A stretch of 64,000 nucleotides of DNA from a candidate division WOR-3 bacterium (GCA_039802605.1 JBDRWW010000002.1:64001-128000); one strand, 5' to 3'; shown: positions 1 through 64,000, numbered from the stretch's first letter. Translations and numbers: made by a program. The notes: generated from the sequence alone by a model not told the origin.

Positions 1-1073
1 ATTGTCCGCGCATCGGTGTTGTAATTCGACGGGGCACAGCGGGTAGTAATGGAACCGCATATATATCCCCAACTGTTCGTATGGACCCTTGCACCCCTTG
101 TATAAGCATCGGTTAATACCGTGTTAAACCCGGAACTTCCTCCCCCAAGTGGGGCTTGCGAGATGATCCTTGACATATAGGCCAATCCCCTGTATAAAGC
201 GGAAGACGCGCTCGTGGCACTGGAATAACCGACGGCAGTTCCGGCCGTATGCGTTCCATGGCAACCCGTTCCGGGACTGCTATTACAGTTTGTCCCAGCA
301 GGTAGGGATGCCACACCGCAACCACCTCCTCCATAATTGCAAAGCGTTACGATTTTCGGTTGCCCCAATACACTGCCGGAGAAGAAACAGTGATTTCTAT
401 CAAGACCGTCGTCGTTATGCCCGAGAATCTCGCCCTCCCCGTGCAGCCCTTTATACCATACGATGGTATCGGTTGGATTGGTTGAAGATTGTATATCAAA
501 CCAGAGACCGGATTGGTGGGTTACGGCTTTTCTGTTGTTCCAGTTTATTATAGGATGTTTGAACTCAACAAAGAAAACCTCCGGTAAATTTGCAAATTTC
601 CGTATTTTATCAACATCGCCCGCGACTTCAACATACGGGTTTTGGGGGTCTATACCCCTTACTTCCAAACCTTCCTTTTGCGCTATTAGGGTTATTTTAT
701 AAATGTCGTTGGAATCTATTAAAACAAGCCTTGCGACATACTTGCCGTTTTCTGTATAGTAGCATCCGTTTTTTAACTTTTCATTTAAGAATACGGGTAA
801 TTTGTACTCCGGGGGTATTGGTACTATCCTCGCCACATATGGCCTTTTAAGCGCTTCTTTTAAGGAGAACTCCGAACCGGAAACCACAAAAGCGTATTGG
901 GGTAGATAATCGTAAAACCTTATACCAAGGCTTGATAATTCTTCTTTGTATTGGGGATATATGGGTCCTTTGAATTGCAGGATATGATAGGGATTGTCCG
1001 TTACCCTACTCTCCACATTCAACTTATGCCCATTTACCCATAAAGACGGCGAAAATAAAACTAACCACATCAT
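1..1073 (-). CDS. S8 subtilisin-family serine protease, KP-43-like (partial, runs off the left edge)
   Basis: Not in the ORF track; translated by hand. Open frame from ATG 1073: MMWLVLFSPS..., propeptide YHILQFKGPI/YDYLPQYAFVV, catalytic Asp region GLHGEGEILGHNDDGLD, His motif CHGTHTAG, and GARVHTNSWG. Confidence 0.93.
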   Translation of the reverse strand, partial: MMWLVLFSPSLWVNGHKLNVESRVTDNPYHILQFKGPIYPQYKEELSSLGIRFYDYLPQYAFVVSGSEFSLKEALKRPYVARIVPIPPEYKLPVFLNEKLKNGCYYTENGKYVARLVLIDSNDIYKITLIAQKEGLEVRGIDPQNPYVEVAGDVDKIRKFANLPEVFFVEFKHPIINWNNRKAVTHQSGLWFDIQSSTNPTDTIVWYKGLHGEGEILGHNDDGLDRNHCFFSGSVLGQPKIVTLCNYGGGGCGVASLPAGTNCNSSPGTGCHGTHTAGTAVGYSSATSASSALYRGLAYMSRIISQAPLGGGSSGFNTVLTDAYTRGARVHTNSWGYICGSITTRCAPSNYNTDART

Positions 1074-1151
1074 AACACCAGATATTGTAAAGTTGTGAGG
1101 TTTGTTATTTCAAGTCATAATGAACCTGCAAGCAACCTTAAAATCTCTAAT

Positions 1152-1850
1152 ATGAGTCTTTTTATTTCCTTTGTTTATATGAAGCACGAGGCTTGGGCAT
1201 CCTTTTCAAAGTTCTCCTATAAGTATAGGGATAAGAGTGCGGTGGCGGATATAGGGGGATATATGAGGTTGTTTAAGTGGGGTGATCACGGTTTGGCGGT
1301 TGGAGGGGATTTTGTGGTTTGGCTGGGTTATGATGTGGGTCTAATCCAGTTGGACCCAATATATGCGGATTATTATGTTTGGTTTGGTGGTTTTAAAGAG
1401 GCAAATAGCGGAACATGGTACTTATTCGTTGAACATCCCTGCTTCCACTACATAGACAGACTTGATACATTACCCCTGTACTGGAATGCTATAAGGTTAA
1501 TGTATAGGGAAAGGGATTTTGAGATTTCCGCTGCCCAGTACATACATAGCGAAAAGTATCAATTCCTTTCAAGGGGGACGGATTGGGGTACGGATTTGAA
1601 GGTTTTTAAAAGGTTAAGGAAAAACCTTGGGAAGGATATTTCAATGTTTTTGGATTGGTATTCGTTTCTGGCTTTGGGTAGAAATTACCGAAGTTTATAC
1701 GCATCCTTGGAAGTAAAGGGGGGATTGGAGTTTATAAATGAAAATGGGGATTTTACCATATCCCTGGGTTTTAGGCCCTATGAAAGGACAGGTATAATAA
1801 GGGATGCCGAGGGTGTCCCTTATATTTCTTTAAAAGTTAGAGGATTTTGA
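1152..1850 (+). CDS. Hypothetical protein, aromatic and beta-rich, possibly outer-membrane
   Basis: ORF 1095..1850; start moved to ATG 1152 because TAAAAT lies 7 nt upstream; ends in Phe. Confidence 0.6.
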   Translation: MSLFISFVYMKHEAWASFSKFSYKYRDKSAVADIGGYMRLFKWGDHGLAVGGDFVVWLGYDVGLIQLDPIYADYYVWFGGFKEANSGTWYLFVEHPCFHYIDRLDTLPLYWNAIRLMYRERDFEISAAQYIHSEKYQFLSRGTDWGTDLKVFKRLRKNLGKDISMFLDWYSFLALGRNYRSLYASLEVKGGLEFINENGDFTISLGFRPYERTGIIRDAEGVPYISLKVRGF

Positions 1851-1876
1851 CAAGAAATGGATTTCAGCCTTAAAAT
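1847..1876 (+). promoter_or_regulatory. Sigma70-type promoter, leaderless or near-leaderless
   Basis: TTGACA-N18-TAAAAT, ATG 9 nt downstream. Confidence 0.8.
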
Positions 1877-1885
1877 TCTGGGCGT

Positions 1886-3283
1886 ATGATATATTATATT
1901 TTAAGCGCTTGCGGATGTCCCACATACAATGTCAATTTAAGCAATAGGGTGGGGAGGGATTTACCGTACAACGACCTAAACTATATCTCAACCGAAAGGA
2001 GCATAAAAAATGTCGCATCCTGCAAGGGTAAGGTTCATGTCGCTTGGTTTGCAAGGGATTTTTCGGGGAATACGGCCATACTTTACCGTAGAAGCGCCGA
2101 CGGTGGAATAACTTGGGATCCCGCCGTACAACTAACAATCGGAAACTTGGACCTTGAACTTTGGGTTCAGTGCTATGGGGATACCGTGGTAGTTGCGTAT
2201 GAAAAACTTTTCTCTGACAAGGAAATATATTATAGGTATTCCACAAACGGTGGTGCAACTTGGAGTGCGGAAGCCGTTATGAGAGGGGGTTCTTATAACC
2301 AAGAGGGGCCATCTGTGTGGATAGGTGGGAATAAACTACACTTGGCATGGGCTGATAATACACCACTCCTTCTAACCCCCATATATTATATATTCTACAA
2401 CAATAGCACAAATTTGGGTTTGAGTTGGTCGTCAAATACCAGGTTGGATTTATCAGATTCACCCATAATAGTCGGAGACCCTACAAACCCAAACATATTG
2501 CACATTTGGTTTATGATATTCAATACCCTTGAAAGTAAGGCGAGATATATAAGGAGTGTTGATGGAGGCGCCACTTGGTCTTCAACATTTGACCTTTCAG
2601 GCGGTGTAGATGCCTCCGGAAGCGGATTTTGGAGAAGACCTGTAGGTTCAATTACGGCATACGGCATATATGTACATGCGGTCTTTGTTGATGATAGGTT
2701 TGGGAATAAGGAGGTTTTATATAGAAGATCAACGAATTCCGGCGCCTCTTGGTCGGGTATAATAAGATTGACAAATACACCCGGAACATCTTGGAGCCCA
2801 TTTATATTAACAAATCCTTTGGGGGAGGTTAGGCTTTATTGGGTTGATGATAGCGATGGGGATTACGAGGTTATGTGTAAGATTTCAACGGATAACGGTG
2901 CCAATTGGTCATCCGACGATAGGCTAACAAACAATTCCGCAAGGGATGTAATGGTTAGCCTTGATTACGACCCAACGAATTCAAGATGGCATATTGTATG
3001 GGCTTCAAACGAGACGGGCGATTGGGAGGTATATTACACATCCGACCCATGTCCTATGGGAAACGACGACGAATTGGGTGTTGAAGAAAAGGCGGATAAT
3101 GGGAATTTGAGGATATTAAGGGATGGAATAGTTTTCGATTCCGATGGAGAGGTTAAGGTTTTCGGTTGGTCGGGTAGAACTTACAAAAAGGTTTGGGTTT
3201 ATAAGGGTTATATGTTAAAACTACCCAAGGGGGTTTGGTTTGTGGAGTTTAAGGGGAGGATGTACAAGGTCGTCATAAATTAA
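1886..3283 (+). CDS. Asp-box/BNR repeat (sialidase-like beta-propeller) protein with a T9SS-like C-terminal domain
   Basis: Repeated S-x-D/N-x-G-x-T/S-W boxes (RSADGGITW, STNGGATW, SVDGGATW, STDNGANW); C-terminus LPKGVWFVEFKGRMYKVVIN. Confidence 0.85.
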   Translation: MIYYILSACGCPTYNVNLSNRVGRDLPYNDLNYISTERSIKNVASCKGKVHVAWFARDFSGNTAILYRRSADGGITWDPAVQLTIGNLDLELWVQCYGDTVVVAYEKLFSDKEIYYRYSTNGGATWSAEAVMRGGSYNQEGPSVWIGGNKLHLAWADNTPLLLTPIYYIFYNNSTNLGLSWSSNTRLDLSDSPIIVGDPTNPNILHIWFMIFNTLESKARYIRSVDGGATWSSTFDLSGGVDASGSGFWRRPVGSITAYGIYVHAVFVDDRFGNKEVLYRRSTNSGASWSGIIRLTNTPGTSWSPFILTNPLGEVRLYWVDDSDGDYEVMCKISTDNGANWSSDDRLTNNSARDVMVSLDYDPTNSRWHIVWASNETGDWEVYYTSDPCPMGNDDELGVEEKADNGNLRILRDGIVFDSDGEVKVFGWSGRTYKKVWVYKGYMLKLPKGVWFVEFKGRMYKVVIN

Positions 3284-3286: not shown

Positions 3287-3309
3287 AAACGGGGGTATAA
3301 TACCCGTTT
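3287..3309 (+). promoter_or_regulatory. -10 promoter of nuoD
   Basis: AAACGGGGGTATAAT, 8 nt to ATG; the same 15-mer precedes rplO and the 58069 gene. Confidence 0.75.
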
Positions 3310-4437
3310 ATGAAATTAAGAACCGAAGAAGTTGTGTTGAACATGGGTCCTCAGCACCCTTCAACACATGGGGTTTTAAGGTTAATATTGCACCTTGAAG
3401 GTGAGAAAATAATAAAGGTTGAGCCGGTTATAGGCTATCTACATAGGGGGGTAGAAAAGTTATGCGAGTATAGGGGTTATGACAACATAGTTCCCATACT
3501 CGAAAGGAACGACTACTTGGCACCCTCTTTAAACGCCCTTCCATTTGTTTTGGCCGTGGAAAAAGGCGCAAATATAGAGGTTCCGAAAAGGGCACAATAT
3601 TTGAGGGTACTTTTGGCGGAAATTGAAAGGATAACATCGCACCTTGTGGCAATAGGTACATACGGTTTGGATCTGGGTGGCGCTTTTGGAGGTGGTACAA
3701 ACTTGGCAATGTTTTGCTTTAGGGATAGGGAAAAACTCTTGGATTTGAAAGAAATCCTTACGGGTTCAAGGTTTCACCCGAATTTTGTATTCATAGGTGG
3801 CGTTAGGTATGATGTTCCGGCGGGTTTCGATAAAAAGGTTAAAGAAACCGTAAAGTATTTAAGGAAATCCTTTGAGGATTACGAACCATTTTTAACAAAT
3901 CCGGTGTTTAAGGCGAGAACCCAAGGGGTAGGGGTTTTACCAAAGGATTTGGCCCTGAAACTCGGAACATCGGGACCCACTTTAAGGGGAAGCGGCGTCC
4001 CCTATGATATAAGAAAATCCGATGGTTATTCATCCTATAACGACTTTCAATTTAATGTTATAACCCTTGAAAGCGGGGATGCATTCGCGAGGGCAACCGT
4101 CAGGTACTTGGAAATGTTTGAGTCTTTAAAGATTATAGAACAGGTTATAGATGGATTGCCGGAAGGCCCCATAAGCTCCCGTATGCCCGTAAAAACCCCC
4201 GTTGGTATAAAACTCCCAGCGGATACCTGGGTGTACGCAAAGGTTGAAAGTCCGAGGGGCGAGTTGGGAGCGTTTATTTATTCCGATGGGAAGCCTCAAC
4301 CCGCAAGGGTAAAGCTCCGTTCCCCATCCTTCTCAAACCTTATGGCCATACAACACATATTGCCGGGGCATTACATTGCGGATACAATAGCCGTTTTGGG
4401 TTCCCTTGACCCCGTATTCGGGGATGTGGATAGGTAA
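3310..4437 (+). CDS. nuoD: NADH-quinone oxidoreductase subunit D
   Basis: NMGPQHPSTHGVLRL, GYLHRG, ESPRGE, C-terminal DPVFGDVDR; no NiFe CxxC motifs. Confidence 0.95.
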   Translation: MKLRTEEVVLNMGPQHPSTHGVLRLILHLEGEKIIKVEPVIGYLHRGVEKLCEYRGYDNIVPILERNDYLAPSLNALPFVLAVEKGANIEVPKRAQYLRVLLAEIERITSHLVAIGTYGLDLGGAFGGGTNLAMFCFRDREKLLDLKEILTGSRFHPNFVFIGGVRYDVPAGFDKKVKETVKYLRKSFEDYEPFLTNPVFKARTQGVGVLPKDLALKLGTSGPTLRGSGVPYDIRKSDGYSSYNDFQFNVITLESGDAFARATVRYLEMFESLKIIEQVIDGLPEGPISSRMPVKTPVGIKLPADTWVYAKVESPRGELGAFIYSDGKPQPARVKLRSPSFSNLMAIQHILPGHYIADTIAVLGSLDPVFGDVDR

Positions 4438-7683: not shown

Positions 7684-8307
7684 CATCCTTTTTGTCCTTT
7701 CCAATGCATCTTTTGCCTTATCAAATGTTGGATCCTCTTTCAAAGACATCTCAAAATACTCCGAAGCCTTTTCGTAATTCCCCTTTGAATACTCGTTTAA
7801 ACCCAGCTTATAGTAGTACTCGGCTTTTTCCCTATTGCCTCTTTTCACTTCAACGGGTCTTTCCAAAGCACCACCTTTATACACATAAAGGGTTTCCACT
7901 TTAACCACCTTTTTAACATTTACATCCCGCCATTTTAGGGAGAGGTTTGGAGAAAACAGGGGTTTAAAGTCTATAATATTAACCCCCAACTCAACGGATA
8001 CACCCAAGGGGAAATCCCTTATGATACCCTCCAAACCAATGGGTATATACAACCCGTAATCCAAATTCCCCCTTTTATACCCCAAAACCGGGCCAAAACC
8101 CGAGTAAAAGAACAGATTATCAAACATATAAAAATTGTAGGAACCCAATCCCTGGACATAAAAGTCCAAATAATCCCTTAAATGCACCCCCATTCCCGAG
8201 CGGGCCTCCAAGGAAAACCTTTCCCTATAAACCTTTAAAGAAACACCGAAAGGTTCTCCGATTAAAACACCCACTGACCATCCGGATAATGATACCAAAA
8301 GGACCAT
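7672..8307 (-). CDS. Small outer-membrane beta-barrel-like domain fused to a C-terminal TPR
   Basis: N-half has alternating hydrophobic strands (GVLIGEPFGVSLK, IPIGLE); C-half TPR (AEYYYKLGLNEYSKGNYEKA...DPTFDKA). Confidence 0.65.
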   Translation of the reverse strand: MVLLVSLSGWSVGVLIGEPFGVSLKVYRERFSLEARSGMGVHLRDYLDFYVQGLGSYNFYMFDNLFFYSGFGPVLGYKRGNLDYGLYIPIGLEGIIRDFPLGVSVELGVNIIDFKPLFSPNLSLKWRDVNVKKVVKVETLYVYKGGALERPVEVKRGNREKAEYYYKLGLNEYSKGNYEKASEYFEMSLKEDPTFDKAKDALERTKRMLNR

Positions 8308-8318
8308 AAACGGTAAGA

Positions 8319-8338
8319 ATTATAACCGCGTTTATAAT
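8319..8338. promoter_or_regulatory. Divergent -10 boxes (TPR gene and methyltransferase)
   Basis: TATAAT on - at 8319-8324 and on + at 8333-8338. Confidence 0.65.
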
Positions 8339-8345
8339 AGCGGTA

Positions 8346-9302
8346 TTGGATAAAACTTTAAATGCCCGGAAATACAGGAGCATGGAGGAAATAACCCATG
8401 AAGATTATTTGAATTTTTTAAAGGAGCATGATACGGTGGAGATTGAGAATGTTAAAATAAAACTCCAAAAAAATTGGAAAATCAAATCCTATGGACCCCC
8501 GGCGGATTATGTTCCTGAACGCACAACCGTTTGGAGTTTTCCCGATCGCGGGGATTGGGCTACTCACAAAGGAAATTATAGAGGAAATTGGTCTCCATAT
8601 ATTCCAAGGAATTTAATATTAAAATACACCCAACCTGGCGACTGGGTACTTGACCAAATGATGGGCAGTGGAACAACACTGATTGAGGCGAAACTATTGG
8701 GGAGAAATGCAATAGGAGTGGATATAAACCTTGATGCCGTAATGGTTGCGAGGAATCGGCTTGATTTTAGGTATAACCCCCTTTTTCCAGAATATAAGGA
8801 ACCTATAATAAAAACATATTTGGGTGATGCAAGAAACCTTGATAAAATCCAAAATGAAAGTATAGATCTAATTGCAACCCATCCCCCATACGCCAATATA
8901 ATATCCTATACCAAGAACAAAAAACAGAGTGATGACCTTTCGCAACTACCTTTTAGAGAATACATTAAAGAAATGAGGAAGGTGGCAGAAGAATCTTTTA
9001 GGGTATTGAAACCCGGTAAGATATGCGCCATCCTTATAGGTGATACGAGGAAGCACAAACATTATGTTCCAATATCCTTTATGGTTATGCAAATATTCTT
9101 GGAAATGGGGTTTATACTAAAAGAAGATATAATAAAGTTGCAGTGGAATATGAAAACTACGAGAGAAAGATGGAGGGCAAGAGAATACGAATTTTATCTA
9201 ATAGCCCACGAACACATTTTCGTTTTTAAAAAACCGGAAAACGAGAAGGAATACAAGAAATACAAGTTAAGCGCAAAATGGTGGGAAAATGGTAAGATTT
9301 AA
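8346..9302 (+). CDS. Amino-DNA methyltransferase (N6/N4 type) of a type II R-M pair
   Basis: Motif I DQMMGSGTT, motif IV-like IATHPPY; overlaps the endonuclease gene; TTG start supported by TATAAT 7 nt upstream. Confidence 0.88.
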   Translation: MDKTLNARKYRSMEEITHEDYLNFLKEHDTVEIENVKIKLQKNWKIKSYGPPADYVPERTTVWSFPDRGDWATHKGNYRGNWSPYIPRNLILKYTQPGDWVLDQMMGSGTTLIEAKLLGRNAIGVDINLDAVMVARNRLDFRYNPLFPEYKEPIIKTYLGDARNLDKIQNESIDLIATHPPYANIISYTKNKKQSDDLSQLPFREYIKEMRKVAEESFRVLKPGKICAILIGDTRKHKHYVPISFMVMQIFLEMGFILKEDIIKLQWNMKTTRERWRAREYEFYLIAHEHIFVFKKPENEKEYKKYKLSAKWWENGKI

Positions 9303-10158: not shown

Positions 10159-10181
10159 CCCACAAGCAAATAAAACAACAG

Positions 10182-10187
10182 TATAAT
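10182..10187 (+). promoter_or_regulatory. -10 box of the rpsF operon
   Basis: TATAAT 9 nt before ATG, no SD. Confidence 0.75.
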
Positions 10188-10196
10188 ACCGGGTTT

Positions 10197-10484
10197 ATGA
10201 GGGAATACGAGGTGGCTTTATTGCTAAGCCCTCAGCAGGGCGACGAGTCCCATGCTGAGTCCATAGAAAAGGTAAAGGATTTTATATTGAAAAACGGCGG
10301 GGAGATTTTGGAAGAGGAGGATTGGGGCATTAGAAAGTTGGCATATCCCATAAAAAAGCAGGAATACGGAAGGTATTACTTCATACGCTTTAAATCCCCC
10401 CCGAATGTCGCCTACGACTTGAACAATCACATAAGGCTTATGAGGGCATTTCTAAGGCATATGATAGTAAGGAGGGATGACTGA
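10197..10484 (+). CDS. rpsF: 30S ribosomal protein S6
   Basis: MREYE...DWGIRKLAYPIKK; start set to ATG 10197, 9 nt after TATAAT. Confidence 0.97.
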   Translation: MREYEVALLLSPQQGDESHAESIEKVKDFILKNGGEILEEEDWGIRKLAYPIKKQEYGRYYFIRFKSPPNVAYDLNNHIRLMRAFLRHMIVRRDD

Positions 10485-10918: not shown

Positions 10919-10931
10919 AAGGAGGTGAAAT

Positions 10932-11126
10932 ATGGGGAACAAAAAGGGAAGGACATTTGATTATAAGGATGTGGAAACTTTAAGCAAATACATTTCGCCT
11001 ACCGGTAAAATCCTCCCGAGGAAATATACAAAACTCTCCGCAAAGGAGCAGAGGAGACTGGCAAAAGCCATAAAGAGGGCGAGGATAATGGCGTTATTAC
11101 CATTCGTAAGGGAGTATGTGGTATGA
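10932..11126 (+). CDS. rpsR: 30S ribosomal protein S18
   Basis: DYKD...GKILPR...[13 protein letters not shown]; one of few genes with a clear SD (AAGGAGGTG). Confidence 0.97.
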
Positions 11127-15853: not shown

Positions 15854-15859
15854 GCGGGA

Positions 15860-15889
15860 ATTTTAATGTTGAAAGTGCAACCGTAAAAT
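15860..15889. promoter_or_regulatory. Divergent -10 boxes (purNH and yggS)
   Basis: TAAAAT 6 nt before each start codon. Confidence 0.7.
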
Positions 15890-15895
15890 TTCCGG

Positions 15896-16531
15896 ATGTA
15901 TAAAGAATTCCTTGAAGAGGTGGAGGAGTTTAAGGAAAAGATAGGTCGTAAGGATGAGATAAAAATAGTTGCCATTTGTAAAGGGGTTTCGGTTGAAAAG
16001 ATTTTAAAAGTTTATGAGGAGGGTTGTAGGGATTTCGGTGAAAATAGGGTTCAAGAGGCGGAGAAAAAAATACCCCTTATCGGAAAACCGGACATAACTT
16101 GGCATATGGTTGGGCATTTACAAAAAAACAAGGTGAACAAGTTTTTAAGGTTATTTGATGTTTTGCACTCCCTTGACGGTGTTGAACTCGCACAAGCAAT
16201 ATCAAAGAGGACATACAAAAAGGTTAAGGTTTTTGTTGAGGTTAATACAAGTGGGGAACCTCAAAAGTTTGGCGTAAAACCAGAAGAAGCCGATAGAATT
16301 ATAGAAATGGTTAAAGAAATCCCAAATTTGGAACTCCTAGGTGTTATGACGGTCGGTCCATATCCGCCTGATGAGTATAAAAGCAGAAAGGCATTTGCCC
16401 TTCTAAGGGAAATAGCGGAGAGGAATAATTTGAGATATATATCCGCGGGTATGACGGAAGATTGGAAATACGCGCTAATGGAAGGGGCAAATGTTTTGAG
16501 GATAAGAAGGGGGATTTTTGGGGAGGGATGA
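15896..16531 (+). CDS. yggS: YggS-family PLP homeostasis protein
   Basis: FGENRVQE, WHMVGHLQKNK, EVNTSGEPQKFG. Confidence 0.94.
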   Translation: MYKEFLEEVEEFKEKIGRKDEIKIVAICKGVSVEKILKVYEEGCRDFGENRVQEAEKKIPLIGKPDITWHMVGHLQKNKVNKFLRLFDVLHSLDGVELAQAISKRTYKKVKVFVEVNTSGEPQKFGVKPEEADRIIEMVKEIPNLELLGVMTVGPYPPDEYKSRKAFALLREIAERNNLRYISAGMTEDWKYALMEGANVLRIRRGIFGEG

Positions 16532-46840: not shown

Positions 46841-46846
46841 TATCGC

Positions 46847-52657: not shown

Positions 52658-52679
52658 AAAGCGGGTATTATATAGGGGT

Positions 52680-54196: not shown

Positions 54197-56190
54197 CTTA
54201 CCTCACTACCTTCCGGGACATCCCCTTCCGGTGTTATGAGTATTGGTTTTCCATCGCCATCGGTCGCGGCAAGAAGCATGCCATCGGATTCTATACCCCT
54301 TATTTTCTTCTTTTGTAGGTTTGATACCACTACGATTTTTTTCCCAACAACATCTTCCGGTCTATATTTTTCCGCTATACCAGCCACAATTGTTCTAACC
54401 TCCTTACCCAAATCAACTTTTAGTTTTAAGAGTTTATCCGCACCTTTAACCCTTTCCGCATCCAAAACCTTACCCACTACGAGTTTAACCTTTTTAAACT
54501 CCTCATAAGTAATCCTTTCATCCTTTTCTTCAACACCTGCAACCCTTTGATTTAGGATTTCAACCCAACCATCAATTACGCTTTTATCCACCTTTTTGTA
54601 CAAGGGTTGGCTTTTCTTTACGGTATTACCGGATAATTCGGGTGATATCCCCGTTAAATCGTCAAAATTCCCCGATATGTTCATATAATCCCACAAAATT
54701 TTAACGGATGAAGGGACATAGGGGTAAAACAAAGCGGATGCCACCTTTAAGCCCTGATATGCTACATACAGAACCGTTTTAGCCCTTTCGGGGTTCTCCT
54801 TTACGAGTTTCCAAGGTCTTTGGTGCTCAAAATATCTGTTGAGTTCGTTGCTAACCTCAACAGCATCCTTTAATGCCAAACGGAAGTTGAAGTTTATCAA
54901 ATTTTCCTCGTAAGATTTGACCTTCTCGGAAATGTAATTGAAAATCTGTTCATCTTCCGATAATATCTTGTCGGGGTGTGGAACGCTACCCGAAAAGTGT
55001 CCGTTTATAAATGTTAGAACCCTTTGGGCCAAATTGCCAAAACTATCAACCAATTCGGCGTTTGTGCGGTTAAAGGCGTCTATAACATTGAAATCGGAAT
55101 CATCCTTCTCCGGTATGTACAGGGCTATTGAATACCTCGCTATGTCTTGACCAACGGTTTTTGCCAACTCATCCGCCCATATGGCATATCCCCTGGATGT
55201 TGATAACTTTCTGCCCATAAGGTTTAAAAAGGCGTTTGCCGGAACATCCGATGGAAGATTGTATTCCCCGTGGGCCATCAACATCGCCGGCCATATTACC
55301 GTATGAAACACGATGTTGTCCTTCCCTATGAAGTGTATTATTTTCGTATCGGGGTTTTTCCAATAATCCTGCCATTTATCGGGTAAGAATTCCACCGTAG
55401 CGCTTATATAACCTATCGGGGCGTCAAACCAAACATACAAAACCTTCCCTTTGGCATCCGGGTCATCCAAGGGAACGGGGACTCCCCAATCCAAATCCCG
55501 GGTTATGGCCCTATCCTCCAATTCCTTAACCCATGAGAGCGCAAACTCCTTGACAAAGGGTTTCCAATTCCCTTTCCCATTTAACCATTCTTCAAGTTTA
55601 TCCTTCAAAAGTGAGAGCTTAAAAAACCAATGCACCGTTTCCCTCAACTCCAAATTAACACCGCTTATTGCGGATCTCGGGTTTATGAGTTGCGTGGGTT
55701 CCAATTGCCTCCCACATTTTTCACACTGATCCCCCCTTGCCTCTTCATACCCGCAATAGGGGCATTTACCCACTATATACCTATCGGGTAGGAATTTCCC
55801 CTCGGCCGGGCTATAAAACTGCTTCATCTTCCTTTTTTCCAAATATCCGTTTTTGTGAAGGGTTAGGAAAAACTCTTGGGAAACCTTGTAATGTATGGGG
55901 TTTGTTGTCCTTGAAAAGTGATCAAACTCTATTCCCATAAGCTTGAAATCGTTTTTTATCCTCTCGTGGTACTTATCAACCAGCTCCTTTGGCGCAACCC
56001 CCTCTTTGTAAGCCGCCAAAGTTATCGCAACCCCATGCTCATCCGTTCCGCAAATGTGTATGGCATCAAAACCCTTGAACTTTAAAAATCTCGTGTATAT
56101 ATCTGCCGGGAGGTATGCACCGGCCAAGTGCCCGATATGTATAGGCCCGTTTGCATAGGGCAAAGCACTCGTTATCAAGTACCTTTTCAC
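54193..56190 (-). CDS. metG: Methionine--tRNA ligase with a C-terminal tRNA-binding domain
   Basis: ALPYANGPIHIGH, YVWFDAPIGY, KLSTS, C-terminal OB domain. Confidence 0.98.
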   Translation of the reverse strand: MKRYLITSALPYANGPIHIGHLAGAYLPADIYTRFLKFKGFDAIHICGTDEHGVAITLAAYKEGVAPKELVDKYHERIKNDFKLMGIEFDHFSRTTNPIHYKVSQEFFLTLHKNGYLEKRKMKQFYSPAEGKFLPDRYIVGKCPYCGYEEARGDQCEKCGRQLEPTQLINPRSAISGVNLELRETVHWFFKLSLLKDKLEEWLNGKGNWKPFVKEFALSWVKELEDRAITRDLDWGVPVPLDDPDAKGKVLYVWFDAPIGYISATVEFLPDKWQDYWKNPDTKIIHFIGKDNIVFHTVIWPAMLMAHGEYNLPSDVPANAFLNLMGRKLSTSRGYAIWADELAKTVGQDIARYSIALYIPEKDDSDFNVIDAFNRTNAELVDSFGNLAQRVLTFINGHFSGSVPHPDKILSEDEQIFNYISEKVKSYEENLINFNFRLALKDAVEVSNELNRYFEHQRPWKLVKENPERAKTVLYVAYQGLKVASALFYPYVPSSVKILWDYMNISGNFDDLTGISPELSGNTVKKSQPLYKKVDKSVIDGWVEILNQRVAGVEEKDERITYEEFKKVKLVVGKVLDAERVKGADKLLKLKVDLGKEVRTIVAGIAEKYRPEDVVGKKIVVVSNLQKKKIRGIESDGMLLAATDGDGKPILITPEGDVPEGSEVS

Positions 56191-56198
56191 GAGTTGGT

Positions 56199-56233
56199 AT
56201 TTTACTACCGTTTGGTTTTTTCATTGGTATAAT
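56199..56233. promoter_or_regulatory. Divergent -10 boxes (metG and M20 peptidase)
   Basis: TAAAAT(-) and TATAAT(+), each 8 nt before the start. Confidence 0.7.
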
Positions 56234-56241
56234 ACACGCTT

Positions 56242-57333
56242 ATGGAGTCGCTTAAACAATTGTTAAAAAATCTAATACAGTTTAGGACAACGGCGGAAAA
56301 CCCGGAGCAACTTTTGGCGATAATAGATTATGTGGAAAAGTTTTTGGAATCGCCCAGCCTTGTAATGGAAAGGTATATGAGGAACGGGAAACCCTCTTTG
56401 GTGGTTAAGTTTTCAAAACATGCCAAGTCCAAACACTTTAAGGTGATATTTGCGGGGCATCTGGATGTGGTACCGGCAAGGGATGAGCAGTTCATACCCT
56501 TGGAGAAAGATGGAAAGATATTCGGTAGGGGTGCCCTTGATATGAAGGGGCCTTCCGCCGTTATGATAAAACTCTTTAAGGATTTGGCGGATATGGGTGA
56601 AGATAAAAACATAGCACTTATGCTAACTACGGATGAAGAGGTTGGAAGTTATGACGGTGTTAGGTATCTGGTGGAAGATGAGGGTTATACCTGCGATTTG
56701 GCCGTTATTCCGGATTCGGGGGAAAACTTCACCATTATAACGAATGAGAAGGGGGCATTCCATTTTGCGGTGGAGTTTAGGGGGAAACCGGCCCACGGTT
56801 CCATGCCTTGGCTTGGTGATAGCGCAATAGAAAAGGTTTTAAAGTTTTACGAAGATTTAAAAAGATTTATCCTTTACGAATCGGATGACCCCGAACACTG
56901 GCACAATACGGTTGTTATGGGTACTTTCAAAGGCGGAAATAAGGTGAATCAGATACCCCCTTATGCCCGTGCGGAGTTTGATTTAAGGTTTGTTTCACCC
57001 TTTACCCTTGACGAAATAAAGTATGGGGTTTCATATCTGGTTAAAAAGTACGGGGGAAAAATGGAGGTTCTGTCCGAAGGACATCCCTTCTCAACTGATA
57101 TAAACAACCCCTTGGTTAAAACCTTTATCAATAGTGTAAGGGAGGTTATAGGTGATGTAAAGTTTGGGAAGACGCACGGGGCGACGGATGGAAGGTTTTT
57201 TGCGGCAAAGGATATACCCGTTGTTATGATATATCCACAAGGAGGGGATATACACGGGGATAACGAGTGGGTTTCCTTTGATTCCCTAATAAAACTTTAC
57301 AAAATATTTGAAAATTTTGTCGGGAAGATTTGA
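56242..57333 (+). CDS. M20 family metallopeptidase (DapE/ArgE-like)
   Basis: GHLDVVP, GRGALDMKG, TDEEVG, GATDGRFF. Confidence 0.93.
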   Translation: MESLKQLLKNLIQFRTTAENPEQLLAIIDYVEKFLESPSLVMERYMRNGKPSLVVKFSKHAKSKHFKVIFAGHLDVVPARDEQFIPLEKDGKIFGRGALDMKGPSAVMIKLFKDLADMGEDKNIALMLTTDEEVGSYDGVRYLVEDEGYTCDLAVIPDSGENFTIITNEKGAFHFAVEFRGKPAHGSMPWLGDSAIEKVLKFYEDLKRFILYESDDPEHWHNTVVMGTFKGGNKVNQIPPYARAEFDLRFVSPFTLDEIKYGVSYLVKKYGGKMEVLSEGHPFSTDINNPLVKTFINSVREVIGDVKFGKTHGATDGRFFAAKDIPVVMIYPQGGDIHGDNEWVSFDSLIKLYKIFENFVGKI

Positions 57334-57725: not shown

Positions 57726-58069
57726 TTACACTCGCAACTCCTCAAAACCATAACCTCAATATCTTCGGGAACAATGTCCGTGTTGGATCCCCTGCAAACC
57801 ACCAACATCTTTGAGACTATTTCCACCCCCTCTTCTTTTAGTTTTTCGGCAAATTCGTACAGCTTCTTTATATGTTCCTCGGTTATCTTGCAGTCGGGTA
57901 CAACCTCAACCACGGCCCTTTCAATAAAACCCTTTCTCCTCCTATCAACCACAAAATCCGGGTTGTTCTTCTCCCTATCAAGTTTTCTTATAATCCAGCC
58001 GTCATCGTAAGGATACCTTTTCCTCAAATTAGCCTTTACATAGGGATATAAATCAATAGCCCTGTGCAT
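57716..58069 (-). CDS. Hypothetical protein with a PD-(D/E)xK-like fold
   Basis: PDFVV...VVEVV spacing; has its own -10 box. Confidence 0.6.
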   Translation of the reverse strand: MHRAIDLYPYVKANLRKRYPYDDGWIIRKLDREKNNPDFVVDRRRKGFIERAVVEVVPDCKITEEHIKKLYEFAEKLKEEGVEIVSKMLVVCRGSNTDIVPEDIEVMVLRSCECNQT

Positions 58070-58098
58070 AAAGTGGGAATTATACCCCCGTTTGATTT
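58067..58098 (-). repeat. 32-nt promoter-plus-start repeat, copy 2 (hypothetical gene)
   Basis: AAATCAAACGGGGGTATAATTCCCAC(T/C)TTATG. Confidence 0.9.
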
Positions 58099-58140
58099 TT
58101 GAGGTTGAAGGCTATGGTAATCACCTTTAAAATATCCGAT

Positions 58141-60423
58141 ATGCTCGGAATAATAGCCTTTGGCGATATGGAGTTTTTAGGGCCAGAGGGATTGGAGGAA
58201 AGGGCGAGGTTAAAGGGTGAATGGGTTAATGTGGGGAGCGTATTTTCGGCGAATATAAATTATTCAACAACCATTAGGTTTATAGGGCCAAAACCAATTT
58301 ATGGGGTGGGCTTTTCCGATGGCAAGGCTAGCGGTAGGGTATCTTTTGTTTTACCGCACCCTACGGATACGGCGGTTGCATATATATCTTCTGCGGGAGG
58401 GGGTGTTTGGAAAACCACGGATGGGGGAAACACATGGATACCCCTAACGGATAACCTACCGGTTTTAACGGGTGGGGCGTTGGCCTTTAACCCCTTAAAT
58501 ACAAATGTAATATGGTACGGCTCGGGTGAATTGCATTATTGTGCCGTATGTTTCCCGGGGGATGGCCTATTTAAATCAACGGATGGGGGTATAACCTGGG
58601 TAAAGGTTGCACCGGCAAATGTGGTGGGATATTACATATCCCGGATAATAGTTATGCCAAACGATACGAACACAATACTTGTCGCAAGTGATAGGGGTGT
58701 GGTTAAATCAACGGATGGGGGAAGCACTTGGGTGAACGTTTTCTCCGGCGATCATGCAAACGATTTGGTTTATAGGAGCGATAATCCGAATGTTCTCTTT
58801 GTGGCTACCCTGTATTCGGGTATTTATAAATCAACGGATGGGGGAAATACGTGGACGAGGATTACATCCCTACCAACCTATGGCTATTTTAGGGCGCAAA
58901 TTGGTATTTCCCCAAGCAACCCGGATGTCATATATGTTGGTTTTGGGGATTCAGATTATTCCTTGAAGGCCTTTTATAAATCGACCGATGGAGGTTTAAC
59001 ATGGGTGCAACTAACAAACACACCCAATTACTTGGGTTTTCAAGGGTTTTATAACCATACCATAGTTGTGCATCCCAACGATCCCAATGTTGTATTTGCC
59101 GGGGGGCAATACCCTTATAACTCCTCAACCTATGGTATAGTTAGGAGTACCGATGGCGGAAGCACATGGGAGGATATAACCAACAGGGGTTCAAGCGGCC
59201 ATGTACATCCGGATATACACCATATGGCCTTTGGTGCTGGAAATATTTTATGGGTTGCGTGTGATGGCGGTGTTTGGAAGAGTTATGATAACGGAAACTC
59301 TTGGGTAAATCTAAACGAGGACTTGGAATTAACGCAGTTTTATACGATTGATGCCCATCCATTGGATACCCTTTTGGTGGTTGGCGGTACCCAGGACAAC
59401 GGAACCCCGATGTTTTCCGGAAGCATAAATTGGGATGAGGTTTCCGGAGGAGATGGGGGTCCGGTGCTTTGGAGACCCGATAACCCCATATACTTTTATA
59501 CATCCCAAATTTACACAAATCCCCTTTACATGTTCAGATGGACGGGGAGTTCCGTTATCCTTGAAAGAATCGTAAATTCACCTTGGAGATTTGACAGGGT
59601 TTCTTGGGCCAACGGACCCTTAGAGGGTCACAGGAGTGGTCCCGTTATTATAGCGGGTTCTCATAGGTTGTGGAAATCAACGGACGGGGGAAATACATGG
59701 ACAGCCATCAGCGGGGATTTAACGGGTGGAAGCGGTTATTTACTCTCGGCGGCCTTTTCATATACAAGCACCGATACGATATATACGGGTTCAAATACGG
59801 GTAGGTTTTACTTCACACCCGATGGGGGAAACACATGGATCGCAAGAATTTTACCATCTACCGGATCTATAACGGACATATGGGTTAATCCGAATAACGG
59901 TTCCGAGGTTTATATAACTTTGAGGAGGACAAGCGGTCCAAGGGTTTTGCGCTCATCGGATGCCGGACAAACTTGGCAAGACATAAGTGGGGATTTACCA
60001 ACCGGAAGGAATGTTAGGGCATTGGCAATAGACTTCACGGTTAACCCTTACATTATTTTCGTTGGTACGGATGATGGGGTTTATTATACTTTGGATCAGG
60101 TTAATTATACAAAGGTCTTGGGATTGCCAAACGCCATAGTGTTTAACCTTGATGTTAATACCGTATATAACAAGTTATATGTTGCGACCCACGGGAGGGG
60201 TGTATGGATGATTGATTATTCATCCGTTGTTGAAATCGCGGAAGGTCATAAACGGGAGAAGGGTATAAATTACCTAAAAGGTGGAATAAGGAGCGATGGC
60301 TTTGTTGAGGTTTATGGGATAAACGGTCAAAGGGTTGCCAGCGGAAAGGGTTTTATCCCCTTAAAGAGGGGGATATACTTCGTTTTGCAAAAGGGTAAAT
60401 ACAAAAAGGTCTTGATTAAGTAA
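58141..60423 (+). CDS. Asp-box/BNR (Vps10/YCF48-like) beta-propeller protein with a T9SS-like C-terminal domain
   Basis: Many K/R-S/T-x-DGG-x-TW repeats, GGTQDNG, ATHGRG; start set to ATG 58141 (TAAAAT 7 nt upstream). Confidence 0.88.
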   Translation: MLGIIAFGDMEFLGPEGLEERARLKGEWVNVGSVFSANINYSTTIRFIGPKPIYGVGFSDGKASGRVSFVLPHPTDTAVAYISSAGGGVWKTTDGGNTWIPLTDNLPVLTGGALAFNPLNTNVIWYGSGELHYCAVCFPGDGLFKSTDGGITWVKVAPANVVGYYISRIIVMPNDTNTILVASDRGVVKSTDGGSTWVNVFSGDHANDLVYRSDNPNVLFVATLYSGIYKSTDGGNTWTRITSLPTYGYFRAQIGISPSNPDVIYVGFGDSDYSLKAFYKSTDGGLTWVQLTNTPNYLGFQGFYNHTIVVHPNDPNVVFAGGQYPYNSSTYGIVRSTDGGSTWEDITNRGSSGHVHPDIHHMAFGAGNILWVACDGGVWKSYDNGNSWVNLNEDLELTQFYTIDAHPLDTLLVVGGTQDNGTPMFSGSINWDEVSGGDGGPVLWRPDNPIYFYTSQIYTNPLYMFRWTGSSVILERIVNSPWRFDRVSWANGPLEGHRSGPVIIAGSHRLWKSTDGGNTWTAISGDLTGGSGYLLSAAFSYTSTDTIYTGSNTGRFYFTPDGGNTWIARILPSTGSITDIWVNPNNGSEVYITLRRTSGPRVLRSSDAGQTWQDISGDLPTGRNVRALAIDFTVNPYIIFVGTDDGVYYTLDQVNYTKVLGLPNAIVFNLDVNTVYNKLYVATHGRGVWMIDYSSVVEIAEGHKREKGINYLKGGIRSDGFVEVYGINGQRVASGKGFIPLKRGIYFVLQKGKYKKVLIK

Positions 60424-61383
<960 letters not shown>

Positions 61384-61547
61384 GGCCTATAAAATAGCCC
61401 CTAAATCTTACCCATTTCCTCTGATCCATAGTCCCCCATCATCCTAACAATTGGGTTCTCGTTCTTTGAGGGTAGTAGTTTTATTTAAGGCCGCCAACAT
61501 GCCTTTTGAAAGACTATAAAATTTTTGCCAACCTTAGAATACCCTTT

Positions 61548-62588
61548 ATGACTTCAAAGAAGGCTTTGGATATCCTAAGGGCAATAGAAATAAACGGAAA
61601 AAACCTCGTTAGTGGGGGCTTCTTGGGTAATTTGACCGTTGAAGGTGGAAGGGTTGAGGTAGTTTTAAACATACCCGAGGATATGGAGGATAAGGCTCTC
61701 GATTTGCAAGATAAAGTTAGGGATGAACTCCTAAAAGGGGGGTTCCAAGAAGTTGTTATAAAAACCAAATTGAAAAAAACTCCACCCCCACCAAAAGTTC
61801 AACCCCAAGCGCCCTTTAAAAAGGGCGAAATACCCGGGGTTAAAAATATTATTGCGGTTGCAAGTGGTAAAGGGGGGGTTGGAAAATCCACCTTTGCGGT
61901 GAATTTGGCGTACGCCTTTAAGAGACTCGGTTATAAAGTGGGTTTATTTGATGCGGATATTTACGGACCAACAATAACCGTTATGCTGGGTTTAAAGGAA
62001 GAGAGAATGAGGGTTGCACCAGACAAAAACAAGTTCCTACCCCCTGAAAGGTTTGGAGTTAAGGTGGTATCCTTCGGAATACTCGTAGATGAAAAAACCC
62101 CAATACTCTGGCGAGGGGCTATGTTTCACAAGGCTTACGAGGAACTTATGCTACAAACGGACTGGGGCGAATTGGACTTTTTGGTGGTTGATCTGCCACC
62201 CGGAACGGGTGATGCCCAGTTATCCTTGGCGCAATTATTTGATGTTAAGGGTGTGTTAATGATAACAACACCCCAATTGGTGGCCATTGCCGATGTTTTG
62301 AGGGCTATAAATGGGTTTGAAAAGTTAGAGGTAAAGGTTCTCGGCATTGTTGAAAACATGGCCTATTTCGTATGTCCGGATAGTGGGAAAAAGTATTACA
62401 TATTCGGGCAAGGGGGTGGTAAAAGGTTATCGGAAATAACGGGGGTACCATTGCTTGCAAGCATACCAATAGACGAATACATATCCACAAGCGGGGATAA
62501 CGGAATACCCGTTGTTGAAGCCTATCCCGACGCCCCGAGTTCAAAGTCCATTATTAAAGTTGCCGAAAGTATAATAAAGGGTTTATGA
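61548..62588 (+). CDS. Mrp/NBP35 (ApbC) Fe-S cluster carrier ATPase
   Basis: ASGKGGVGKST, DLPPGTGD, ENM; start ATG 61548 (TAGAAT 7 nt upstream). Confidence 0.95.
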   Translation: MTSKKALDILRAIEINGKNLVSGGFLGNLTVEGGRVEVVLNIPEDMEDKALDLQDKVRDELLKGGFQEVVIKTKLKKTPPPPKVQPQAPFKKGEIPGVKNIIAVASGKGGVGKSTFAVNLAYAFKRLGYKVGLFDADIYGPTITVMLGLKEERMRVAPDKNKFLPPERFGVKVVSFGILVDEKTPILWRGAMFHKAYEELMLQTDWGELDFLVVDLPPGTGDAQLSLAQLFDVKGVLMITTPQLVAIADVLRAINGFEKLEVKVLGIVENMAYFVCPDSGKKYYIFGQGGGKRLSEITGVPLLASIPIDEYISTSGDNGIPVVEAYPDAPSSKSIIKVAESIIKGL

Positions 62589-63310
62589 ATTCGGTTTTGA
62601 GGACGGAGAACCTCGTAAAGATTTACAAAAAAAGAAAGGTTGTTAACGGTGTTTCGGTATTTGTGAAGCAGGGGGAGATAGTGGGGCTTTTGGGGCCAAA
62701 CGGTGCCGGTAAAACTACAACATTTTATATGGTGGTTGGGGCCATAAAACCCAACGGTGGTAAGGTTTATTTGGACGGAAAGGATATTACGAAATTACCC
62801 ATGTTTAAGCGCGCCCGCTTGGGGATAGGATATTTGCCGCAGGAACCTTCCGTATTCAGGTACCTATCCGTTTGGGATAATATATACGGCGTTCTTGAAA
62901 TGAGGGGTGTTAAGAGAAGTGAAGCAAAAAGGAAAACGGAAGAGGTTATAGAATTGTTAAATTTAAAAAAAGTGGTGAAGAGTTTGGGAATCCAACTTTC
63001 TGGTGGGGAAAGGAGGAGGGTTGAGGTTGCAAGGGCAATTGTTTTAAATCCCAAATTCCTGCTCCTTGACGAACCCTTTGCCGCCGTTGATCCGAAAACA
63101 AGGGAAGAAATACAAGAAATCGTATTAAAGTTGAAGAACATGGGTATAGGTGTAATAATAACGGACCACAATGTAAGGGAGACATTGGAAATTACCGACA
63201 GGGCTTATATAATTTACGATGGGAAAATATTGCTTGAAGGTTCAACACAGGATTTGATAAACGACCCGAAGGCAAGGGAGATATATCTCGGAGAAAAGTT
63301 TAGGATGTAA
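62585..63310 (+). CDS. lptB: LPS export ABC transporter ATP-binding protein
   Basis: GPNGAGKTTTFY, YLPQEPSVF, LSGGERRRVE, TDHNVRETL. Confidence 0.96.
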   Translation: MNSVLRTENLVKIYKKRKVVNGVSVFVKQGEIVGLLGPNGAGKTTTFYMVVGAIKPNGGKVYLDGKDITKLPMFKRARLGIGYLPQEPSVFRYLSVWDNIYGVLEMRGVKRSEAKRKTEEVIELLNLKKVVKSLGIQLSGGERRRVEVARAIVLNPKFLLLDEPFAAVDPKTREEIQEIVLKLKNMGIGVIITDHNVRETLEITDRAYIIYDGKILLEGSTQDLINDPKAREIYLGEKFRM

Positions 63311-63354
63311 GGATTTTTAGCCAAAAAATTCTTCGGGCTTAAAATTCCACACCT

Positions 63355-64000
63355 ATGGTATCCATCATTTCCTTTTTTGTCCATCCCGAAACCGCGTTAT
63401 GGGTTGGAGATAAAATATTCGTAAGCGATATAGGTGAGTTTAATAAGAGGGACGGAAAGGTTTATGTTAGGATTGGAAGTAATTGGGAGGTATATGCATC
63501 GTATTTAAATGACCCTAAGGGTTTGGCACACTGCAAGGGAGTATTGTATGTGGCAGATGTTGATAGGATATGGGCCATAAAAGACAAATCGGCCGTTTTC
63601 CTTTTTGTGGGTCCGAAGGATTTCAAGGCGGAATTTTTAAACGGCATAACCTGCCGCAGAGGCGAAAAACTTTATGTTAGCGACACATATGGGAATGCGA
63701 TTTACGAGGTTGATATAAGCACAAAAACCGTGAAAAAGGTTTTGGAAGTTGAAAAACCCAACGGCCTAGCCCTTGACATCTCCGGAAACCTGTATATAAT
63801 AACATTCACAAAACCCGGAATGATTTTAAGGTGGGATGGCAACAAAATTGATACGCTCCTTGTAAGCGAGGATATAAACGGGGGGGATGGAATAGTTTAT
63901 GACGAAGATAGTAGAGCCATAATAGCATCGGGGTTTGAATCCGGTAAGGTTATCCAATTAACACCGGACGGTAAGTACGAGGTTATAGCAAAGGATTTGA
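63355..64000 (+). CDS. SMP-30/gluconolactonase-like beta-propeller protein (partial, runs off the right edge)
   Basis: Translated by hand: MVSIISFFVHPE...LNDPKGL...LYVAD...FLNGI...LYVSD...PNGL...GDGI; no stop before the edge. Confidence 0.82.
   Translation, partial: MVSIISFFVHPETALWVGDKIFVSDIGEFNKRDGKVYVRIGSNWEVYASYLNDPKGLAHCKGVLYVADVDRIWAIKDKSAVFLFVGPKDFKAEFLNGITCRRGEKLYVSDTYGNAIYEVDISTKTVKKVLEVEKPNGLALDISGNLYIITFTKPGMILRWDGNKIDTLLVSEDINGGDGIVYDEDSRAIIASGFESGKVIQLTPDGKYEVIAKDL

Follow-up and report, generated by a model that had tools for sequence, protein, structure and literature searches.

A -10 box adjoining the start codons of transcript-leading genes in Candidatus Caldipriscus: a probable leaderless gene architecture

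In a 64,000-nucleotide stretch of DNA from a candidate division WOR-3 bacterium (bases 64001-128000 of contig 2; hereafter the window), a hexamer resembling the bacterial -10 promoter element is found only 6-11 nucleotides (nt) before the start codons of 30 operon-leading genes. The locus raises the question of whether a promoter stands here so close to the genes that their messages have practically no leader, or whether the hexamer is a translation signal or a product of base composition. In our analysis of the sequence, the most probable answer is that the promoter abuts the start codons in a leaderless architecture, the messages beginning at or within ~3 nt of the start codon, and a rough probability of 0.85 is given to this reading. 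The source organism is Candidatus Caldipriscus (WOR-3/Caldipriscota), whose congeners share 77-79% MetG identity. It is an uncultured, hot-spring, deep-branching hyperthermophile with a bacterial 16S rRNA and a type A RNase P RNA, and it lies outside both Deinococcus-Thermus and Actinobacteria. The genome comprises 1.65 Mb in 23 contigs, with 41% G+C.

The box before start codons

The box was scored in a loose form, TAnnnT, and in a strict form, TAnA[A/C]T. The first-pass annotation had reported a -10 box before 30 start codons in the window, and TAnnnT was found at the exact spacer given (6-11 nt) in 30/30, the strict form fitting all 30 as well. That reading was to fall if the box proved no commoner than in shuffled DNA. 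In 2000 dinucleotide-preserving shuffles of the 45-mers upstream of the 30 sites, the loose form was met at spacers of 6-11 nt on average in 5.6/30 (maximum 13) and the strict form in 1.1/30 (maximum 5). At other spacers in the real upstream sequences, TAnnnT occurs in 4/30 (20-25 nt) and 6/30 (26-31 nt). A C located six bases 5' of the hexamer, which was not used in the selection of sites, is present in 30/30. The sites are listed below, each from this C to the end of the start codon.

1071..1095, minus: C-N5-TACAAT, 10-nt spacer, ATG 1073; subtilase-like protein (Pfam Peptidase_S8)
1133..1154, plus: C-N5-TAAAAT, 7-nt spacer, ATG 1152; the in-frame GTG at 1095 upstream is a less likely start
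1865..1888, plus: C-N5-TAAAAT, 9-nt spacer, ATG 1886; BNR-repeat protein, 35-nt gap after the preceding gene
3290..3312, plus: C-N5-TATAAT, spacer ACCCGTTT, ATG 3310; nuoD, 26-nt gap, residue 3 on model position 2
8305..8330, minus: C-N5-TATAAT, 11-nt spacer, ATG 8307; TPR protein, divergent pair with 38-nt gap
8327..8348, plus: C-N5-TATAAT, 7-nt spacer, TTG 8346; methyltransferase
10176..10199, plus: C-N5-TATAAT, 9-nt spacer, ATG 10197; rpsF, heading the rpsF-ssb-rpsR-rplI operon, S6 residues 1-94 on model positions 1-94 of 95
15851..15871, minus: C-N5-TAAAAT, 6-nt spacer, TTG 15853; purN-purH fusion
15878..15898, plus: C-N5-TAAAAT, 6-nt spacer, ATG 15896; YggS family
19118..19141, minus: C-N5-TATAAT, 9-nt spacer, GTG 19120; lamin-tail-domain protein, TTGACA ~16 nt 5' of the hexamer
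19180..19203, plus: C-N5-TATAAT, 9-nt spacer, ATG 19201; TTGACA also upstream
20474..20495, plus: C-N5-TAAAAT, 7-nt spacer, ATG 20493; NlpC/P60, 20-nt gap
28684..28706, minus: C-N5-TAAAAT, spacer ACCCGCTT, ATG 28686; dnaN, residue 2 on model position 1
30191..30213, minus: C-N5-TAAAAT, 8-nt spacer, TTG 30193
30226..30248, plus: C-N5-TATACT, 8-nt spacer, ATG 30246
32309..32331, plus: C-N5-TAGAAT, 8-nt spacer, ATG 32329; 25-nt gap
36367..36387, minus: C-N5-TATAAT, 6-nt spacer, ATG 36369; LolA-like, short hydrophobic N-terminus, with only a weak box at the upstream GTG 36399
36419..36441, plus: C-N5-TAGAAT, 8-nt spacer, ATG 36439; Uma2 copy 1
37485..37506, plus: C-N5-TATAAT, 7-nt spacer, ATG 37504; peroxiredoxin
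45099..45122, minus: C-N5-TATAAT, 9-nt spacer, ATG 45101; rplO, residue 4 on model position 2
46778..46801, minus: C-N5-TATAAT, 9-nt spacer, ATG 46780; ResA-like thioredoxin
46829..46849, plus: C-N5-TAGAAT, 6-nt spacer, TTG 46847; acyltransferase
52655..52678, minus: C-N5-TATAAT, 9-nt spacer, ATG 52657; V-type ATPase subunit I, 22-nt gap
56188..56210, minus: C-N5-TAAAAT, 8-nt spacer, GTG 56190; metG
56222..56244, plus: C-N5-TATAAT, 8-nt spacer, ATG 56242; ArgE/DapE family
58067..58090, minus: C-N5-TATAAT, 9-nt spacer, ATG 58069
58122..58143, plus: C-N5-TAAAAT, 7-nt spacer, ATG 58141; three in-frame starts upstream, all boxless
60427..60450, plus: C-N5-TACAAT, 9-nt spacer, ATG 60448; L-lactate dehydrogenase, 24-nt gap
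61529..61550, plus: C-N5-TAGAAT, 7-nt spacer, ATG 61548; Mrp/ApbC
63334..63357, plus: C-N5-TAAAAT, 9-nt spacer, ATG 63355

Many of these start codons are correct. The first possible in-frame start is the chosen one at 25/30 sites. Among the five sites with upstream alternatives, four were inspected and the canonical C-N5 box always stood at the listed start, while for the fifth, rpsF at 10197, the listed start is backed by the S6 family model. For S6, DnaN, L15, MetG, NuoD, PurN, LDH, the DapE-family protein, peroxiredoxin and V-ATPase subunit I, alignments to full-length NCBIfam models open no more than 5 residues from the called start. In the divergent pairs 8307-8346, 15853-15896 and 56190-56242, the intergenic regions measure only 38, 42 and 51 nt and hold two back-to-back promoters each, so that the upstream half of each promoter overlies the other promoter.

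As the sites had been picked by eye by means of the box, a second count was made without that selection. Open reading frames (ORFs) of at least 90 amino acids (aa) were collected with the longest start and greedy overlap removal, giving 1586 ORFs genome-wide, 1580 of which were used for the start scan; in the window count, an ORF was leading if divergent or preceded by a gap of at least 12 nt. Among the 69 window ORFs, a strict box was found at a start within 20 codons in 30 of the 34 leading ORFs against 2 of the 35 internal ones. These 30 consist of 29 listed sites and ORF 10484, which was probably scored fortuitously through a box at an internal TTG; the rpsF start at 10197 is absent from the 90-aa set. 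Four leading ORFs are boxless (11123, 41728 on the minus strand, 21006 and 31398). Of them, 11123 and 41728 actually lie behind small genes skipped by the ORF set (rpsR in the one case, infA and others in the other), 21006 follows a tRNA-Asp gene, and 31398 has a 12-nt gap. Gene 62585 (62567-62587) shares 4 nt (ATGA) with its upstream neighbour and also has, within that neighbour, a strict box at a 9-nt spacer from its ATG; this box may be an internal promoter.

Genome-wide, TAnnnT stands 6, 7, 8 and 9 nt before the first possible start in 103, 103, 194 and 160 ORFs (560/1580), compared with ~115/1580 expected from in-frame start-like codons inside genes. The box was found at 83% of 66 divergent heads with gaps of 41-60 nt and 85% of 86 with gaps of 61-100 nt, as well as in 82% of 82 same-strand genes lying 25-40 nt apart, against a background of 13%, a figure that refers to a 7-nt range. 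Before overlapping internal genes it is at background level (14% of 621 vs 13%). Shine-Dalgarno (SD) 4-mers behave in the opposite manner, being present at 31% of overlapping internal genes and depleted to 2-3% at the same divergent heads, vs a background of 18%. Unsupervised expectation-maximisation (EM) on the 45-mers upstream of 576 leading ORFs yielded the motif sCCtTAwAAT, 269 of whose 368 strong matches lie at a distance of 6-10 nt from the start, and returned no SD-like motif from these sequences. The pattern TAWAAT-N8-ATG has 212 occurrences in comparison to 55 for the reversed pattern. When a start anywhere in the first 30 codons was admitted, a box was found at 415/576 leading ORFs (72%) vs 20% in a matched control, or ~65% after correction for chance. 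The architecture had been described as near-universal; this is true of the window (30 of about 32 transcript heads) and of compact intergenic regions (87-92% for divergent gaps of 25-100 nt), but it does not extend to all leading ORFs of the genome.

The box is conserved in relatives. An adjoining -10 box is present at the metG start in 24/29 relatives, from genus to class, the other 5 having an SD instead, and the purN start is boxed in 10/10 family members that hold the 5' end of the gene. In a comparison of 15 genomes, based on small samples of 40-80 kb with 12-45 leading genes each and set against their own background, boxed leading ORFs amounted to 85% of 20 in a sister genus (background 5%). 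The sister family gave 41-59%, the remainder of the class 5-50%, and five genomes from other classes 18-50%; SD words increase where the share of boxes decreases. Counting the pattern in 272 genomes across the phylum gives the same direction, though this count is confounded by G+C content and serves as a rough guide only. By these counts, the putative leaderless trait is strongest in the Caldipriscus family and graded across the phylum.

Promoter anatomy and non-coding RNA genes

The anatomy of the promoter was derived from 525 genes aligned on the hexamer, which reads TA-w-A-A-T. Counted from the hexamer, C stands at offset -6 in 78% and at offset -3 in 56%, offset -1 holds T in 58% and C in just 2%, and offsets -17 to -12 are A-rich. 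Downstream of it, the spacer opens with A or T, is rich in C at positions 2-4 and has a purine at position 5 in 71-86% depending on spacer length, followed by a pyrimidine-rich run. The C-rich then T-rich spacer noticed earlier in the window is real, with C in 38-63% at positions 2-4 and T in 39-78% at the base before the start, by spacer length. Over 570 genes, 62% have T as the last base ahead of the start codon, which fits the rule that transcription starts have a pyrimidine at -1 and a purine at +1. No general enrichment of the -35 hexamer TTGACA was found 16-18 bp upstream (5-6 of 6 matches in 23/525 promoters vs 9/525 control positions), and the classical sigma-70 layout with such a hexamer is not the rule; exceptions include the promoters of 19120 (minus), 19201 and 16S. 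The box is best described as the -10 element of a housekeeping sigma-70 type promoter, C-N5-TAnAAT, usually without a -35 element. An archaeal-type promoter was considered and rejected: the A-rich tract found ~28 nt ahead of the start codons (54% A) is part of the bacterial promoter, and no TATA/B recognition element (BRE) pattern is present. Unlike almost all protein genes, the rRNA operon combines a leader with a classical TTGACA-N17-CATAAT promoter, placed ~75 nt upstream of 16S (contig 3).

The same box with its flanks is found 8-15 nt before the mature 5' end of 41/46 tRNA genes, and four of the five boxless ones lie within one tRNA cluster. The window holds one example:

20906..21005, plus: promoter C 20906 and TATAAT 20912-20917, 11 nt before tRNA-Asp (20929-21005); TTG 21006 adjoins the tRNA 3' end

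The RNase P RNA gene (type A, 211.6 bits; contig 11, 7865-8270) starts with G at the ninth base after TATAAT, with C at -6. A thiamine pyrophosphate (TPP) riboswitch (contig 2, 47266-47378, minus) and a cobalamin riboswitch (contig 2, 18672-18836, minus), both on the contig of the window but outside it, have 5' edges flush with a box. Since the box precedes tRNAs, RNase P RNA and riboswitches, it acts in transcription and not in translation. The first-pass annotation had held that there is no room for riboswitches. For the window genes this stands, as Rfam at gathering thresholds gave no cis-regulatory RNA there and only tRNA; genome-wide it does not, in view of at least 2 riboswitches and the leadered rRNA operon. 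The genes behind the two riboswitches have weak SD-like words. The RNase P RNA gene may also serve to calibrate the distance from box to transcription start.

For many tRNA genes, the first base of the tRNA is also the first purine to occur beyond spacer position 5 of the promoter, which had suggested leaderless tRNAs made without RNase P. This idea was dropped because RNase P RNA is present and because the distances from box to tRNA are on average longer than those to messages. In 28/46 cases, tRNA genes are followed within 0-8 nt by the start codon of an ORF of at least 60 aa (21 TTG, 7 ATG), and in 21/46 a TTG opening such an ORF lies within 0-3 nt of the tRNA 3' end. TTG 21006 behind tRNA-Asp opens a 320-aa ORF, but the family models begin at residue 7, the second TTG at 21024, which appears to fit better than TTG 21006.

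TTG starts, transcription starts and competing explanations

Several TTG and GTG starts had been pointed out in the window, and they are present as described: TTG at 8346, 15853 (minus), 30193 (minus) and 46847, GTG at 19120 (minus) and 56190 (minus). Genome-wide, the 487 strict-box starts comprise 393 ATG, 41 GTG and 53 TTG (11%). TTG starts occur at spacers of 6-7 nt, ~2 nt nearer the box, while ATG and GTG peak at 8-9; at spacers of 5-7 nt there are 41/53 TTG starts vs 103/434 ATG and GTG starts (Fisher p = 2.5e-14). Among 38 TTG genes scanned against family models, 22 were without a match at E <= 1e-40, and in 14 of the 16 with a strong match the model N-terminus lies within 5 residues of the TTG. 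The TTG codon of purN is GTG or ATG in seven genomes of the sister genus and TTG in three other genomes. On this evidence the TTG starts look real.

The mechanism that we propose runs as follows. The promoter would consist of an A-rich tract, C, N5, TAnAAT, W-CCC-R and a pyrimidine-rich run ending in T, and RNA polymerase would start at the start codon or within ~3 nt of it. From polymerase geometry, the leader is probably 0-3 nt, close to the earlier estimate of about 0-4. A message starting at or near its start codon has no room for an SD site, and the ribosome with initiator tRNA would presumably bind the 5'-terminal start codon directly, as in other leaderless systems. Most downstream genes of a transcript would be translated through the ATGA stop/start overlap and a minority through an SD read by the intact anti-SD sequence. 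Where same-strand genes do not overlap, the downstream one would have a promoter of its own, often in a gap of 20-40 nt, and the rule of leaving no slack between promoter and product would extend to non-coding RNAs, that is tRNAs, RNase P RNA and riboswitch aptamers.

Several observations weigh against this reading. The modal spacer of 8-9 nt exceeds the 6-8 nt of Mycobacterium given in the accessible part of PMC6028130, and a start at the seventh base would give a leader of 1-3 nt. The 11% share of TTG among abutted starts conflicts with what is known of leaderless translation (PMC4007540, consulted in part). Only 72% of the 576 leading ORFs are boxed, falling to 41-66% for gaps above 100 nt, partly because such gaps hold genes and RNAs missed by the ORF set. 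The gene set is crude, as small genes are missed and some gaps thereby inflated. The choice of the longest ORF adds a slight in-frame bias, with bumps of ~10 counts at spacers of 12, 15, 18 and 21 nt, because the hexamer can open with TAA or TAG; these bumps are far smaller than the main peaks, and the tallest peak (spacer 8) is out of frame. Three raw-read hot-spring metatranscriptomes, of which ~3-5% of each run was searched, gave 0, 0 and 2 reads on 44000-63999 of the window. A fourth RNA run, available as contigs only, gave 13 pieces of at least 99% identity on the same interval, although contigs cannot show starts or strand.

The closest competing explanation keeps the same promoter and lets the polymerase always start at the seventh base after the hexamer, so that TTG genes would be truly leaderless with 5'-UUG, and ATG and GTG genes would be 'mini-leadered' by 2-3 nt, typically as 5'-UU-AUG. 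The shorter spacers of the TTG genes fit this explanation well. Positions 7-8 after the hexamer are also mostly T in spacer-8 genes (51% and 78%), and processing of the tRNA 3' end would leave identical 5'-UUAUG and 5'-UUG ends where TT-ATG follows a tRNA gene (four cases) or TTG follows one directly (several cases). However, most transcripts would then begin with a pyrimidine, and RNA polymerases generally prefer a purine start. In spacer-9 genes the TT moves with the ATG and not with the hexamer, and RNase P RNA begins at the ninth base, with a G preceded by C. In Deinococcus deserti, moreover, transcription begins precisely at the start codon's first base for 47% of start sites, according to the consulted part of PMC4007540. 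On balance a fixed seventh-base start is rather unlikely. RNase P RNA weakly favours the alternative to it, in which TTG transcripts begin with U at the seventh base and all others with A or G at the ninth or tenth.

The boxes might also be real but mostly secondary promoters, with read-through transcripts dominating and the genes acting as internal cistrons. The high frequency of boxes in same-strand gaps of 25-40 nt is compatible with this, as a terminator would not fit into gaps of 20-40 nt. At 54/227 same-strand junctions of 0-16 nt the hexamer overlaps the stop codon of the gene before it, and one contig of the RNA library (61310-61530) reaches from within ldh to a point 18 nt short of the following start codon. 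Such cistrons are nevertheless without SD (2-6%) and without overlap, so nothing known would start their translation, and divergent heads cannot arise in this way, yet they show the highest box frequency. We consider this explanation improbable. The box is A/U-rich when read as RNA, it lies ~10-15 nt before the start and SD is rare, so it could in principle be a non-SD site for the ribosome or ribosomal protein S1 in longer leaders, of the Bacteroidota type (GeneMarkS-2 group B); such signals are not always separable from S1 sites (Nakagawa et al., PMC5397173, as far as accessible). Against it, the motif is absent before internal genes both genome-wide and in the window, whereas group B motifs precede all genes (PMC6028130, in the part seen), the same motif with its flanks precedes tRNA genes, RNase P RNA and riboswitches, and two boxes fit within 38-52 nt in divergent pairs with no space for promoters further upstream. 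This makes a translation signal highly improbable. Least credible is an artefact of AT-rich intergenic DNA and biased choice of start codons. The sites were picked by eye, and TAnnnT is a loose pattern with an appreciable background, but the shuffles and the unselected C at -6 do not support such an origin, and neither do the position-specific peak genome-wide, the unsupervised motif discovery and the conservation of the box in relatives.

Known leaderless systems and internal genes

The layout is known from other bacterial groups. In group C of GeneMarkS-2, a Pribnow box lies ~10 nt from the starts of first genes, the group holding 90% of Actinobacteria and 97% of Deinococcus-Thermus, and 25-50% of transcripts in these genomes are leaderless (PMC6028130, accessible part). 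Candidatus Caldipriscus appears to belong to this type: its Pribnow-type box stands ~6-10 nt before first genes and before untranslated genes, internal genes lack the box and use other signals, and leader and SD are apparently missing. The motif before leading and internal genes alike, characteristic of group B, was not seen. Differences from group C are the larger share, which from sequence is 87-92% in compact intergenic regions and ~65% overall, and the modal spacer of 8-9 nt instead of 6-8, and the lineage is not among the groups named in the portion of PMC6028130 consulted.

In Deinococcus deserti, 60% of mapped gene start sites are leaderless, with a TATAAT-like box and no conserved -35 (de Groot et al. 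2014, PMC4007540, consulted in part), leaderless being defined there as a primary 5' end at the start codon or within 5 nt. The resemblance lies in the box directly upstream and the lack of a -35, and the leaderless set of D. deserti includes abundant proteins (PMC4007540). Its start sites are, however, measured, while those of Caldipriscus are predicted, and the near-fixed C at -6 is a Caldipriscus feature that the available part of PMC4007540 does not mention for D. deserti. Leaderless starts in D. deserti are ATG in 83% and GTG in 17%, with TTG in 3 genes (0.3%), and UUG on leaderless messages is nonfunctional in E. coli and Haloferax (PMC4007540). The canonical leaderless rule, which demands a 5'-terminal AUG or, with weaker effect, GUG, does not describe the 53/487 strict-box starts of Caldipriscus that are TTG. 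Archaea of group D (Sulfolobus, Haloferax) have a similar leaderless fraction, at 60-80% of transcripts (PMC6028130 and PMC4007540, parts consulted), but their TATA box lies ~26 nt before the start, in contrast to the bacterial -10 hexamer at 6-10 nt in Caldipriscus. Nakagawa et al. describe the same kind of upstream bias by phylum (PMC5397173, in part). No paper was found that links 'leaderless' to WOR-3, Caldipriscus, Pyropristinus, Caldipriscota or Stahliibacteriota, although the supplementary genome lists of GeneMarkS-2 might include a relative. Within what these sources cover, the fraction estimated here would stand at the high end of the bacterial range in a lineage for which no description was found, and the architecture is unusual for its fixed C at about -18 and its frequent use of TTG starts.

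It is a tentative proposal, to which we give slightly less than even odds, that translation of leaderless messages in this lineage can start from a UUG at the very 5' end. If true, the Caldipriscus ribosome or its initiation factors would recognise message 5' ends in a relaxed or different way, and the RNA polymerase would begin many transcripts with U. UUG starts, the fixed C and the missing -35 would together form a distinct minimal grammar of gene expression, and the AUG requirement of leaderless translation has, in the TTG starts, a concrete exception that can be tested. The leaderless reading as a whole would add an uncultured hyperthermophilic lineage to the short list of bacteria with leaderless initiation as the main mode, and the gradation across the phylum would provide a natural series for the replacement between SD-led and leaderless initiation. 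In practice, the box would be the best available marker of true start codons in the lineage, where gene callers expecting an SD will misplace starts. Start calls by the box also bear on short N-terminal export signals. One example is the LolA-like protein (35857-36399, minus), which opens with MVLVFLMAS at the start bearing the canonical box, so the promoter supports a very short hydrophobic N-terminus.

Internal genes mostly overlap or abut their neighbours, as had been observed in the window; the same-strand junctions of the genome include 295 4-nt ATGA overlaps, 40 1-nt overlaps and 106 gaps of 0-3 nt. The 16S rRNA 3' end reads CACCTCCTTTC, with an intact anti-SD sequence, and SD-led initiation still exists, as shown by rpsR:

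10919..10934, plus: rpsR, internal gene with the full SD AAGGAGGTGA (10919-10928) before ATG 10932

Clear SDs had been noticed only before rpsR, Uma2 copy 2 and the proteolipid gene. Their rarity is borne out, but more exist, among them a GGAGG 9 nt before secY (44651, minus) and another GGAGG 4 nt before ATG 16531.

Two further features of gene order were observed. In most bacteria rplO follows rpsE-rpmD; here it heads its own transcript, rplO-secY-adk-map-infA and onwards (window 44652-46780, minus), with three non-ribosomal genes upstream on the same strand. In a single 688-aa ORF (13790-15853, minus), residues 4-181 form a PurN domain and residues 186-688 a full PurH; this fusion is kept through the family, the open frames of relatives measuring 690-808 aa.

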